The translations under genes were made by a program, and so were the position numbers. The notes below the pieces were generated by a model. It had not been told where the DNA came from and ran no database searches. It was given only the letters and a program-made list of their open reading frames with translations. From a virus (lineage: Duplodnaviria; Heunggongvirae; Uroviricota; Caudoviricetes), in the IMG/VR virus record IMGVR_UViG_2778261643_000011: a DNA stretch of 5,783 nt. One strand, written 5' to 3'. This document shows positions 2,365 to 5,277 of this stretch, piece by piece; the first letter of the stretch is position 1, and each line of letters opens with the position of its first letter.

Positions 2365-3262
2365 GCACTGGAAAAACATTTCTATTTATAAAGTTTCTCG
2401 TGAGGCGGATCTGACCGACTTAGAAGATAAAAATAAAATGATCCTATTCACGCCATGCGGTAGCCAGGATATGGCCAAGTTCGGTTTTGTATCGCCATTT
2501 GGTGATAATTCCGAAGTGATCGCTATGCATGGAAATGGCTTTATCCTTGTTGAAGCAAAGCGCGAAACAAAAATTCTTCCCTCGCCGGTTATCCAGCGAG
2601 CTATTCAAGAAAAAATTGAAAAACTTGAGCAAGAACAAGCGCGTAAACTGAAGAAAACAGAGAAGGACTCCCTGAAAGACGAAGTTCTGCATTCTCTTCT
2701 GCCACGGGCTTTTTCAAAGTTTTCTGTTATCCAGGCGATCTACGACGGTTCAACTAAACGTATCTATATCAATGCCAGCGCACGGCAGGCAGAGGATATG
2801 CTCGCGCTTATGCGTAAGTCTCTGGGTTCTCTTCCTGTTGTTCCCCTGAGTGTTGAAAATCCCATTGAATCAACGCTGACCGACTGGGTACGTGATGGTA
2901 GTGCTCCACAGGGATTTCAAATGGGGGATGCGGCAGAACTTAAGGCAGTGCTTGAGGATGGCGGTATTGCTCGAGTGAAAAAGCAGGATTTGGGAAGCGA
3001 TGAAATTTCCACACACCTGGAAGCTGGCAAGCTCGTCACAAAGTTGGCACTCGACTGGCAGAACCGCATTAAATTTACACTGGACCATAATTTCAGCCTT
3101 ACCAGCGTCAAATTTGCGGATGAATTGCTTGAGCAGAACTCTGATATTGATAGTGAAGATGTTGCGCAGCGACTGGACGCAGATTTCTTCCTGTTAACCA
3201 GTGAAATTTCGTGCCTGGTTGATGCTCTGGTAAATGCCCTGGGCGGAGAGGCTAAGCAGTGA
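2357..3262 (+). CDS. hrdC: RdgC-family recombination-associated protein homolog
   Basis: 301-aa ORF whose length and blocks ([83 protein letters not shown]-terminal LGGEAKQ) correspond to bacterial RdgC as I recall it. ATG at 2357 is chosen over the track's TTG at 2336 because it aligns with the RdgC N-terminus and has an AAGGG element 7 nt upstream. Stop overlaps the next gene's start (GTGA). Confidence 0.85.
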
Positions 3263-5277
3263 GAGAGCTGTGCTATGGATCTGTTTGCAGTGGAATTGAA
3301 GCCGCGAGCATTGCATGGGAACCGTTGGGTATGCGTCCGGCGTGGTTTGCTGAAATCGAGCCTTTTCCATCTGCCGTTCTTGCGCACCGCTGGCCCCATG
3401 TCGCGAACCTTGGCGACATGACAAAACTCGCCCAAAAAGTCCAGGCCGGAGAAATTGAAGCCCCTGATGTGCTCGTCGGGGGTACGCCTTGTCAGGCATT
3501 TAGTATCGCGGGATTAGGTGGTGGGCTTGATGATGAACGCGGCGCGCTAACTTTGAAGTATGTGGAGCTTGCAAATGCAATTGACGACAAACGGGCTGAG
3601 TCATTTCTCAAACCAGCAGTTATCGTCTGGGAAAATGTCCCAGGAGTCTTGTCATCGGCAGATAACGCCTTCGGATGTTTCCTTGCCGGATTGGCTGGAG
3701 AAGATGCGCCATTCGAACCAGGTGATCGACCTGAATCAGGAAAAAGTAACGCGTTCTGGCGGTGGGATGTCAAAACCGGTTGCCATGCTCCAAAGTGGCC
3801 GCAGTGTGGTTGTATTTATGGACCGCAGCGAAAGGTGGCCTGGAGAATCCTTGATGCCCAATACTTCGGAGTGGCACAACGACGCCGACGCGTGTTTGTT
3901 GTCGCAAGTGCTCGAACAGACCTCGATCCCGCAACGGTACTTTTTGAGTTCGAAGGCGTGCGCCGGAATATTGCGCCGAGCAGAGGCGAGGGGAAGGAAA
4001 CTACCAGATATACTTCAAACATCGCTATCAGAACTTGCGATGATACAAACATAATTGCCATGGCACATGGGCAAGGAGGGGCTGAGATAAAAACCGATAA
4101 TTCGGCACCAACTTTGACATGTAACCATGAAGCACCAATTGTATTGCTCGGCGACGGTAGAATGCGCCGTCTTACCCCTGTCGAATGTGAAAGGCTGCAA
4201 GGTTTTCCTGATGGGCATACGTTGATCCCGACGGAAAAGCGTAAAAAAGTTAATTCAGATGAACTGGCATATCTTCGCAATCACTATCCAGATTTAAGCG
4301 AAGAAGAGGCCGCGATGCTTGCAGCTGACGAACCGCGTTACAAAGCGATCGGCAATAGTATGGCAATACCAGTAATGCGCTGGATTGGCGATCGGATTAC
4401 TAAGGCCGTATGTCGGCAGAAAGAAGGAAGTGAAACAAAAGAGCGAAAAGTTAAACCAGCGGCAGAATTCGAACGGTCCATATTCAAATGGGCTGGTGGA
4501 AAATTTGGTGTTCTGGAACAAATCTTTCGCTATTTGCCAGAAGGGAAGCGCCTGATTGAACCTTTCGTTGGTGGCGGAGCTGTCTTCATGAATGCCGGAT
4601 ACCAGGAAAATCTGCTAAATGATGTGAATGCTGACCTGATTAACTTTTACAAGACTCTGCAACGCGAGGCGAATTCACTTATCACTCTGGCACATCGTTT
4701 CTTCCAGGACTACAACACACAGGAAGGATACCTGGCAGTACGGAATGCGTTTAACAAACAAGTCTATGATGATTTACATCGCGCAGCGGCGTTTTTGTTC
4801 CTGAACCGACATTGTTTTAACGGATTGACGCGTTACAACCAGGCCGGTGAGTTCAATGTCGGTTATGGGAAGTATAAAACTCCGTATTTCCCATTACAGG
4901 AGATGGAAGCCTTCCTCGGTGCGGAAGGGCGGTCTGAGTTTGTATGCGGTGATTTTGCAGCGGTGATTGAAGCTGCCGGAGAAGGAGATGTCATCTTTTG
5001 CGATCCGCCGTATGAACCGCTTCCAAATACAGAGGGATTCACGAACTATTCCGGTCATGACTTTAAGTTTGAAGAGCAAAAACGCCTGGTGTCTCTGTTG
5101 ACGGATGCTCATCGTCGAGGTGCAAATGTTCTCATTACTAACAGTGGCGCGCCAAACATCAGAGAGCTTTATCATGACAGTGGCTTCAGAGTGGAACCTC
5201 TTTTTGCCAGACGTTCTGTGTCTTGTAAGGGAGACACTCGTGGTGTTGCTCATGACGTTATAGCAATATTGCTCTAA
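3259..5277 (+). CDS. dmt: bifunctional DNA methyltransferase: N-terminal C5-cytosine MTase fused to C-terminal Dam-family N6-adenine MTase
   Basis: 672-aa ORF with GTG start overlapping the upstream stop and a GGAGAGG element upstream. N-terminal half carries C5-MTase motifs: motif I variant [10 protein letters not shown], catalytic PCQ (nt 3487-3495), ENV (nt 3631-3639), [10 protein letters not shown], and C-terminal GNSMAIPV. C-terminal half from about aa 407 is Dam-like: [17 protein letters not shown], and catalytic DPPY (nt 5002-5013). Double stop TAA TAA. Confidence 0.9.
4492..4499 (+). other. Chi recombination hotspot octamer (GCTGGTGG)
   Basis: Exact GCTGGTGG on the plus strand inside dmt, formed by the codons for W-A-G-G of the Dam-domain KWAGGK motif. 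Confidence 0.6.

Follow-up and report, generated by a model that had tools for sequence, protein, structure and literature searches.

The fusion of a C5-cytosine methyltransferase with a Dam-type N6-adenine methyltransferase in one gene is already known: it is the long-known dmt (dam) of P1/P7-type plasmid prophages. The GenBank records of P1 and P7 annotate the dmt/dam product as bifunctional, N6-adenine and 'perhaps' C5-cytosine, and dmt is among the C1-controlled genes that are switched on at lytic induction (PMC4713147). According to a review (PMC12707154, citing Sternberg & Coulby 1990), P1 packaging depends on methylation of GATC in pac, and in Dam-minus hosts P1 cannot do without dmt. 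In a CRISPRi screen with a Dam-plus host, dmt scored as non-essential for P1vir (PMC10695390), an observation that was counted against the overall reading given below. The plasmids on which dmt is found include carriers of resistance genes such as mcr-1 (PMC5786510).

The DNA analyzed here, called the window, is a stretch of 5,783 nucleotides. Its bases 60-5720 are collinear with P7 and P1 at 96–97% identity. In the list of open reading frames of the window, positions 3259-5277 on the plus strand encode a protein of 672 residues with a GTG start, which is 97% identical to phage P7 Dam (AAQ07538.1) and 91% identical to P1 Dmt (AAQ14041.1). WP_097430378.1 is an exact match to it. The order upfC, Odmt-Pdmt uhr hrdC dmt, Oban is that of P1 and P7, and together with the high identity it identifies the gene as their ortholog. 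On these sequence grounds, the ORF is dmt (P7 'dam') of a P1/P7-like E. coli phage-plasmid, of the P7 type and intein-free. The overall reading is that of a P7-type dmt repressed by C1, with a GATC-specific Dam half, a C5 half likely directed at one target and no restriction partner; we give it a probability of about 85%. The locus is composed of the following features.

1992..2008, plus strand: C1 repressor operator Odmt (former Op68), ATTGCTCTAATAAATAT, with one mismatch to the 17-bp operator consensus
2008..2037, plus strand: promoter Pdmt, -35 TTGTTT and -10 TACCAT, assigned by homology, its position carried over from the P1 annotation
2080..2364, plus strand: uhr, first gene of the operon, a 285-bp CDS at the matching position in P1 and P7
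2357..3262, plus strand: hrdC, RdgC-family recombination-associated protein (PF04381 RdgC, E 1.3e-98)
3259..5277, plus strand: dmt, fused C5-cytosine and Dam-type N6-adenine methyltransferase, from profiles and identity with P7/P1
5268..5295 (5268-5284 plus, 5279-5295 minus): divalent C1 operator Oban; against the operator consensus, 0 mismatches on one strand (plus) and 2 on the other (minus)

The first-pass annotation had described one polypeptide with a C5 methyltransferase followed by a Dam-like domain; its coordinates for the ORF are exact, and the curated family cut-offs are passed. It did not say that this gene had been described before and is widespread, that motif I is atypical, or that the window copy carries the singleton G358E, and the anti-restriction role of the C5 half is a presumption. 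The dmt region is present in 448 PLSDB plasmids and in 458 of 5426 complete E. coli genomes (~8%). A frameshift or misassembly artefact as the origin of the fusion was rejected, the same ORF being found on at least 86 contigs and in hundreds of plasmids. For two decades the P1/P7 records have described this gene, with its fused architecture, how it is regulated and what its Dam half does, and nothing is added here as a finding on these points.

The gene order and the operators of the window agree with the P1 and P7 annotations. Odmt lies exactly where Odmt/Op(dam) is annotated in both phages, with 0.01 chance matches expected, and Oban corresponds to the annotated Oban/Op72; the latter contains the final three codons of dmt plus its stop TAA (5275-5277). 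Pdmt is absent from the list of sites returned by a generic sigma-70 scan, which gave 4 sites versus 7.1 in shuffled sequence and was therefore set aside. No match was obtained for uhr in Pfam or NCBIfam profile searches, and hrdC scored 378.9 bits with NF001462 (cut-off 330). Since C1 repressor operators flank the uhr-hrdC-dmt operon on both sides, its function is a lytic-phase one: C1 bound at 1992-2008 silences the three genes in the lysogen, and lytic growth turns the operon on. The stop of hrdC and the start of dmt, the third gene, overlap as GTGA, and translation of dmt is probably coupled to that of hrdC through this overlap. When the entire window was scanned with Rfam, the sole match was to tmRNA_permuted and fell below threshold (26 bits versus 47); the scan did not retrieve the 'dicF-like region' of P1 as DicF, and ARAGORN found no tRNA in the window.

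A Type II restriction-modification system would have an endonuclease gene next to the methylase, and dmt has no such neighbor in the window, in the complete P1 and P7 records or in plasmid L003. The earlier claims that no such gene is adjacent and that this is an orphan phage-borne C5-Dam fusion thus hold, the locus being a P1/P7-type dmt/dam that lacks a nuclease partner and belongs to an operon repressed by C1. The window is short, ends in repeated elements and leaves its own flanks out of view, so dmt could in principle belong to a restriction-modification system with a nuclease gene beyond the window. We give this next to no weight: in complete P1, P7 and plasmid L003, dmt has the hrdC operon, the ban operon and tRNAs as neighbors, with no nuclease among them, the relatives in lambdoid prophages are solitary too, and repression in the lysogen misfits a system in which the host must be protected continuously. 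Membership of dmt in EcoP1I, a Type III system that has separate mod and res genes at another place in P1, was also considered and rejected, as mod and res are absent from the ~12 kb of P1 around dmt. The dmt product is thus read as a solitary enzyme, in which one polypeptide of 672 residues holds two independent AdoMet-dependent DNA methyltransferase domains. The second of these, and the linker before it, are placed as follows.

4411..4470, plus strand: inter-domain linker, aa 385-404, between the two domain matches
4471..5274, plus strand: Dam-type (D12 class) N6-adenine methyltransferase domain, aa 405-672 (PF02086, TIGR00571)
5002..5013, plus strand: catalytic motif D-P-P-Y, aa 582-585, aligned to DPPY 181-184 of E. 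coli Dam

The Dam half matches PF02086 over aa 411-643 (190.9 bits versus a cut-off of 22, E 4.2e-56) and TIGR00571 (dam, NCBIfam; 249.5 bits versus 114.85). It aligns end to end with E. coli Dam 2g1p (E 1e-57), the fold of which was also retrieved by Foldseek (E 5e-14). With FKWAGGK (aa 409-415), EPFVGGG (FxGxG, aa 434-440) and DPPY all in place, the full Dam-like domain proposed from FKWAGGK and DPPY was recovered. The half has a pN/pS of 0.165 and differs from the P1 Dam half at 5 positions (98% identity). Compared with E. coli Dam (PDB 2g1p, 4rtm) and DpnM, identity is ~39% over the full length; FxGxG and DPPY are kept, as are the residues that contact DNA in the published structures of E. 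coli Dam: K9, N120, L122 and R124 correspond to K410, N521, L523 and R525, in register with DPPY at 582-585. Differences from E. coli Dam include P134 to Gly, Y119 to Phe and R137 to Lys and, unlike the E. coli enzyme, this half shares its polypeptide with a C5 domain and is under phage control. Because of the 98% identity to the P1 enzyme and the conserved Dam contact and catalytic residues, the Dam half (aa 405-672) would methylate the adenine of GATC. It would thereby keep newly replicated phage DNA fully methylated, so that pac could be cut without reliance on host Dam. GATC itself is unremarkable in frequency in the window (26 sites versus 21.8 expected). The equivalog of host Dam, NF008152, gave 246.4 bits, below its cut-off of 441; judged by its sequence, the Dam half is a phage paralogue rather than a chromosomal dam.

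The linker had been placed at around aa 385-405 in the first-pass annotation, and this stretch does sit between the domain matches, with low AlphaFold confidence over aa 388-417. Its pN/pS is 0.62, and two unrelated versions of it occur among the alleles. A late promoter and a start codon within the gene might additionally give rise to a Dam-only protein, in which case the fusion would be one of two functional forms. In the P7 record, LPdam2 is predicted as a late promoter within the gene, at a place that corresponds to ~4247-4265 of the window, and an in-frame ATG at nt 4315 (Met353) has AAGAGG 11 nt upstream. Moreover, dmt is split into dmt-A and dmt-B in some P1 stocks (PMC10695390), and C5-only proteins of 473 aa are on record (P0029). 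Against this, LPdam2 is itself a prediction, its -22 element has 3 differences in the window (AAGTTAATT vs AAGTTTCTT), no such feature is found in the P1 record, and a start at Met353 would leave a stray C5 motif X on the protein. We therefore consider such a second product improbable, and the fused 672-residue protein remains the preferred product of the locus. Its C5 half is organized as follows.

3259..4410, plus strand: C5-cytosine methyltransferase domain, aa 1-384, PF00145 and TIGR00675 above cut-offs
3286..3300, plus strand: motif I variant C-S-G-I-E, AdoMet-binding loop (canonical form F-x-G-x-G)
3481..3495, plus strand: motif IV G-T-P-C-Q, aa 75-79, with the catalytic Cys78, aligned to GFPCQ of M.HhaI
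3631..3639, plus strand: motif VI E-N-V, aa 125-127, invariant in 62 relatives
3877..3891, plus strand: motif VIII Q-R-R-R-R, aa 207-211, with Q207 and R211 invariant in 62 relatives
3979..4161, plus strand: P7-type target-recognition region, aa 241-301, one recognition block; the P1 segment is unrelated
4165..4209, plus strand: motif IX, aa 303-317, aligned to RKLHPRECARVMGYP of M.HhaI
4330..4332, plus strand: codon 358, GAA (Glu) here and GGA (Gly) in other alleles; seven residues ahead of G-N-S of motif X
4351..4359, plus strand: motif X G-N-S (GNSMAIPV, aa 365-372), invariant in 62 relatives

The assignment of this half is supported by PF00145 (122.5 bits versus a cut-off of 22, E 3.4e-35), by TIGR00675 (dcm, NCBIfam; 115.1 bits versus 100.65) and by a Foldseek match to M.HhaI (E 9e-10). 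Motifs IV, VI, VIII, IX and X occur in the canonical order and are invariant across the 62 relatives, down to ~50% identity. The claim of a complete C5 motif set was borne out with two qualifications: all of the motifs quoted were found, but motif I is the non-canonical C-S-G-I-E, the F-x-G-x-G form being missing, and Glu replaces the conserved Gly358. This glycine is at least 90% conserved in the 62 relatives and present in 7 of 7 P7-type alleles compared; among database records, the Glu form is found on 1 contig and the Gly form on 86. An E358G version of the window protein would be identical to P0121. The catalytic residues (Cys of PCQ, DPPY) had been described as unsubstituted and are so on inspection, with Cys78 and DPPY 582-585 intact. 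P7 Dam, a 'hypothetical bifunctional DNA methyltransferase' also of 672 aa, shares its length, recognition block, operon and operators with the window, and the two proteins differ by 18 amino acids, among them G87 (R in P7) and the singleton E358 (G in P7). Arg87, in the catalytic loop, is near-invariant.

Could the C5 half of the window copy, or of the P7-type allele generally, be catalytically dead, its use confined to binding DNA or acting as a scaffold on behalf of the Dam half? We regard this as unlikely. Our literature search found no paper reporting m5C activity or specificity of P1/P7 Dmt, and the singleton G358E lies beside motif X at a highly conserved position. R87G would point the same way, but it is common to several alleles. 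The atypical motif I points that way too; on the other hand, it is at least 90% conserved in the 62 relatives rather than decayed, and the active prophage enzyme M.BatI is similar, its CxGxxG also having Cys in place of Phe (PMC8936443). Alleles P0027 and P0042 persist with internal deletions that remove motif IX, and because such alleles exist, C5 activity is dispensable in some lineages. On the other side stand the intact catalytic residues and strong purifying selection on aa 1-240, with a pN/pS of 0.12. In addition, a 341-aa intein (Hint plus LAGLIDADG) is kept exactly at the catalytic cysteine, between Pro77 and Cys78, in about 130 plasmids, for example in L006-L008 and L011; the intein-bearing allele is 1013 aa long. 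The literature search returned no paper describing a dmt intein. The window dmt is free of it: GGTP-CQAFS is uninterrupted, with the empty site P77/C78 at nt 3489/3490. Related phages join this C5 domain to an adenine methylase of another family, PF05869, which argues that the pairing of C5 and adenine methylases is itself under selection. In our preferred reading, the most likely activity of the C5 half (aa 1-384) is to methylate cytosine at C5 within one short sequence, which would be read by a single recognition block at aa ~265-295. Such m5C would make progeny DNA resistant to one class of restriction enzymes, the cytosine-sensitive ones. It would also alter the handling of transduced or packaged DNA by McrBC-type host systems.

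Monospecific enzymes of the M.HhaI type arrange their motifs as the window protein does (I, IV, VI, VIII, recognition region, IX, X) and have a small recognition region, in which a G-Q-G loop and a T-L dipeptide are in register with those of the window protein. G271-Q272-G273 and T285-L286 align with G236-Q237-G238 and T250-L251 of M.HhaI, a weak match with a domain E of 0.26. The window protein differs from these enzymes by its ~18% identity, its C-S-G-I-E motif I, the lack of a partner nuclease and inserts of ~40 aa (VI-VIII) and ~45 aa (IX-X). The former (aa ~147-200) is beta-rich and confidently modelled. In PDB sequence searches, similarity of the C5 half to solved structures was confined to the catalytic motifs, and no close relative turned up. 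The full-length AlphaFold model has a mean pLDDT of 65.7 and falls below 50 over the recognition region at aa 231-291; as a model it was unusable for reading specificity, and Foldseek confirmed only the two folds. Sequence searches found no characterized relative of the recognition block, in agreement with the earlier remark that sequence does not reveal the cytosine specificity.

P1 Dmt (754 aa) shares with the window the catalytic C5 core, the linker, the Dam half, the locus and its regulation. What separates P7-type from P1-type alleles is an exchanged target-recognition block: in P1, an unrelated 143-aa segment of about three blocks, Y-W-Z, replaces aa 241-301 of the window protein, so the cytosine targets of the two enzymes probably differ. 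At Gly74 of GGTPCQ, a residue that is invariant in the 62 non-P1 relatives, the sequenced P1 strain carries Trp instead. Recognition-region DNA of the P7 type was found in 184 plasmids, versus 257 for the P1 type.

The multispecific C5 enzymes of Bacillus phages (SPR, phi3T, rho11s, H2) are also orphans from temperate phages. In relatives of the window protein, the variable region is a tandem array of 1-9 short, recognition-like blocks with T-L-like cores, in many combinations (41 block architectures among 56 distinct variable regions, with block A the commonest). This arrangement resembles the tandem recognition domains of the Bacillus enzymes as cited in PMC8936443, and we infer from it that enterobacterial enzymes may be multispecific. 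In contrast to the Bacillus enzymes, the window allele has just one block: its 89-aa region between motifs VIII and IX holds block A alone, not two or more tandem recognition domains. No paper on multi-block enterobacterial C5 enzymes was found in the literature search. The C5 half may thus belong to an apparently undescribed combinatorial family of temperate-phage enzymes in Enterobacterales, with interchangeable tandem blocks, 1 to 9 in each; we put this forward tentatively, at somewhat less than even odds. If true, the family would be the enterobacterial counterpart of the multispecific Bacillus phage enzymes, with the P7-type Dmt of the window as a natural single-block (A) enzyme and P1 Dmt as a carrier of three other blocks. 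P1-like plasmids would then change their cytosine-methylation repertoire by cassette exchange, in the same plasmid population in which a homing intein would spread on the catalytic cysteine. The single-block allele would be the simplest handle to decode one block of a large modular phage family.

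The window gene is the orthologue of P7 dam and P1 dmt, on the agreement of synteny, operators and identity. Phages P7 and P1, as well as many P1-like elements, match positions 60-5720 collinearly at 96-97% identity. The encoded protein is 97% identical to P7 "Dam" (AAQ07538, 672 aa) and 91% identical to P1 Dmt (754 aa), both of which are described in the depositors' annotation as a bifunctional methyltransferase, N6-adenine "and perhaps C5 cytosine". The layout is that of the P7 and P1 records:

minus strand: upfA (truncated in the window), the mlp/ppfA pair, upfB and upfC
between upfC and uhr: C1 operator and promoter
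plus strand: uhr, hrdC and dmt, in this order
3259..5277, plus strand: dmt, an uninterrupted ORF of 672 aa with a GTG start
after dmt, last element: divalent C1 operator of the ban operon

Operators for the phage repressor C1 are located at 1992-2008, 5268-5284 and 5279-5295, with 0.01 matches expected by chance, and the ban operator contains the final three dmt codons and the dmt stop. The GTG start, preceded by GGAGAGG, overlaps with the hrdC stop in the tetranucleotide GTGA. The hrdC product belongs to the RdgC family (PF04381, E 1.3e-98). At least 80% of the window is covered in 448 PLSDB plasmids and in 458 of 5426 complete E. coli genomes, and the exact window protein (WP_097430378.1) is on record on one contig. 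The dmt gene of P1/P7-type phage-plasmids is well known, and the finding is thus already known. Both ends of the window lack a match to P1/P7: 1-59, which cuts upfA, is a plasmid repeat adjoining IS91-family fragments, and 5721-5783 is an IS2 terminus present in 4590 of the 5426 E. coli genomes. With its 5783 bp the window represents an entire draft contig, broken at repeats on both sides. As the first-pass annotation had reported, no nuclease gene is adjacent to dmt; this holds for the window, P1, P7 and plasmid L003, and a restriction-modification pair was rejected on this ground. A nuclease partner could be hidden beyond the window, whose own flanks are not visible, but its absence beside dmt in P1, P7 and L003 makes this extremely improbable.

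The upfC gene (1626-1910, minus strand) encodes a 94-aa PAAR-like protein that scores below the cut-offs of PF05488 (26 bits, cut-off 27) and T6SS_PAAR_dom (E 4e-9, 36 bits, cut-off 124). The overlapping mlp and ppfA (201-533 and 367-789, both minus strand) are labelled Rz1-like lipoprotein and Rz-like spanin in other records; the principal lysis genes of P1 lie at a considerable distance from this pair. At 5458-5480 (plus strand), a strong hairpin accompanied by a T-run resembles a terminator. A sub-threshold tmRNA_permuted match (5476-5582, 26 bits versus 47) is located just downstream of the P1 "dicF-like region" mapped by coordinate transfer, and no Rfam family scored above threshold at 5458-5582.

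The first-pass annotation had described a single polypeptide fusing a C5-cytosine and a Dam-type methyltransferase, with unsubstituted catalytic residues. Every motif that it quoted is found in the dmt protein, including the PCQ cysteine and DPPY:

aa 75-79: GTPCQ
aa 125-127: ENV
aa 207-211: QRRRR
aa 365-372: GNSMAIPV
aa 409-415: FKWAGGK
aa 582-585: DPPY

Both halves belong to their enzyme families by curated profile cut-offs. The protein matches PF00145 (C5 methylase; 122.5 bits, E 3.4e-35, cut-off 22) and TIGR00675 dcm (115.1 bits, cut-off 100.65), as well as PF02086 (D12 class adenine methylase; aa 411-643, 190.9 bits, E 4.2e-56, cut-off 22) and TIGR00571 dam (249.5 bits, cut-off 114.85). 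E. coli Dam structures align end-to-end with the C-terminal half (E 1e-57). The linker proposed at aa 385-405 indeed falls between both domain matches, in a stretch of low confidence in the structure model. Both the observation and its interpretation were correct. The host Dam equivalog was rejected for dmt (246 bits versus 441 required).

The Dam half differs from that of P1 at 5 positions. In the alignment to E. coli Dam it keeps the AdoMet loop EPFVGGG and DPPY, together with the residues that we take to be DNA contacts in the published E. coli Dam-DNA structures, i.e. K9 (K410), N120 (N521), L122 (L523) and R124 (R525). According to PMC12707154, citing Sternberg & Coulby 1990, P1 packaging requires GATC methylation at pac, and dmt is therefore essential in Dam-minus hosts; in a Dam-plus host it is dispensable (PMC10695390). 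From the near-identity to the P1 Dam half, the kept residues and the pac requirement, we strongly infer that the window protein methylates GATC. By homology, C1 would repress the uhr-hrdC-dmt operon in the lysogen, and dmt is among the C1-controlled genes switched on at lytic induction (PMC4713147). A second, Dam-only product might come from the locus, as the P7 record predicts an internal late promoter and an ATG at 4315 has AAGAGG upstream. However, the predicted promoter is altered at 3 bases in the window, and such a product is improbable.

Judged from sequence comparison, the C5 half of the exact window copy is probably active (roughly two in three), and activity would be more probable still for this type of allele as a whole. 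Motifs IV, VI, VIII, IX and X are invariant among 62 relatives with identity down to about 50%, and pN/pS is 0.12 over aa 1-240 versus 0.165 for the Dam half (eight P7-type alleles). Both observations argue against a dead C5 half in the window copy, an alternative that we consider unlikely although several points favour it. Motif I is C-S-G-I-E instead of F-x-G-x-G, a variant conserved family-wide; a similar motif I, CxGxxG, occurs in M.BatI, an active enzyme of a prophage (PMC8936443). The near-invariant Arg87 is Gly in the window copy, as in some other alleles. At codon 358 (window 4330-4332), seven residues before motif X, GGA is changed to GAA, replacing by Glu a Gly conserved at 90% or more among the 62 relatives. 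The E358 form is on 1 contig versus 86 for the otherwise identical G358 form, and G358E might result from a sequencing error or be a genuine mutation that inactivates the C5 half. The literature searched yielded no experiment in which Dmt deposits m5C. In P1 c1-100 mod749::IS5, codon 74 of Dmt (L002:6419-6421) encodes Trp for the first Gly of G-G-T-P-C-Q, which is invariant among 62 non-P1 relatives. The substitution may compromise the C5 half of laboratory P1 and so could account for the lack of any m5C report. Natural in-frame deletions in two dmt alleles, P0027 (628 aa) and P0042, remove the recognition-block end and motif IX and retain the Dam half; C5 activity is therefore dispensable in some lineages.

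Related prophages carry the same C5 domain fused to PF05869, another adenine-methylase family, which counts in favour of C5 activity and suggests that the cytosine-plus-adenine pairing itself is under selection. These fusions, with PF05869 in place of PF02086, are found in lambdoid prophages (P0099 at L014:6001-7749, P0046, P0103, P0107, P0109 and P0113) and seem to represent a second, independent origin of the pairing.

P7-type and P1-type proteins are near-identical except from motif VIII to motif IX, where 61 residues of the window stand for 143 unrelated residues of P1. P7-type DNA is present in 184 plasmids and P1-type in 257, which is nearly all P1-like plasmids. In a weak alignment, which counts in favour of C5 activity, the recognition region of the window protein is in register with both M.HhaI recognition loops (G-Q-G 271-273 with 236-238, T-L 285-286 with 250-251). 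Synonymous diversity is about sevenfold lower in the recognition block (3979-4161, 0.014) than in the catalytic flank (3259-3978, 0.10), the block value resting on only 4 synonymous differences in eight P7-type alleles, from summed, non-independent comparisons with the window. This pattern hints that the block has spread recently through recombination or cassette exchange; it is consistent with such exchange without being proof of it.

Among relatives P0046-P0120, mostly orphan genes of lambdoid prophages (Enterobacter, Klebsiella and others), the region equivalent to window 3892-4164 was surveyed. In 56 distinct variable regions the motif VIII-IX segment is 81 to 344 aa long and consists of recurring short blocks with T-L-like cores, 1-9 per protein, in 41 arrangements; blocks were defined by eye and regular expressions, and counts are approximate. 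Block number correlates with region length (r 0.92, about 29 aa per block), and some of the blocks may act as spacers instead of taking part in recognition. These arrays resemble those of multispecific methyltransferases from Bacillus phages, whose recognition domains are in tandem, as cited in PMC8936443. Block A is the commonest (43 of the 56 regions) and the sole block of the window protein, for which a multi-block enzyme was thus rejected; P1 Dmt has three blocks, none of them A.

Many dmt alleles are 341 aa longer, on both recognition backgrounds (P7-type 1013 aa, P1-type 1095 aa). The extra segment has Cys as its first residue and His-Asn as its last two, directly precedes the catalytic Cys of P-C-Q, and matches the Hint_2 and LAGLIDADG_3 profiles, which identifies it as an intein placed exactly at the active-site Cys. 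Its DNA was found in 126-133 plasmids, for example at L006:3431-4453 and in L007, L008 and L011. The window is intein-free; the insertion site at 3489/3490 is empty and uninterrupted, and an intein-bearing allele was rejected. No published account of a dmt intein or of tandem blocks was found in the literature searched, which did not extend to REBASE or to a number of key papers. The points of value, all of them largely beyond the original finding, are the specificity for cytosine, the cassette-like character of the recognition region, polymorphism for the intein and the arrays of blocks in the relatives.
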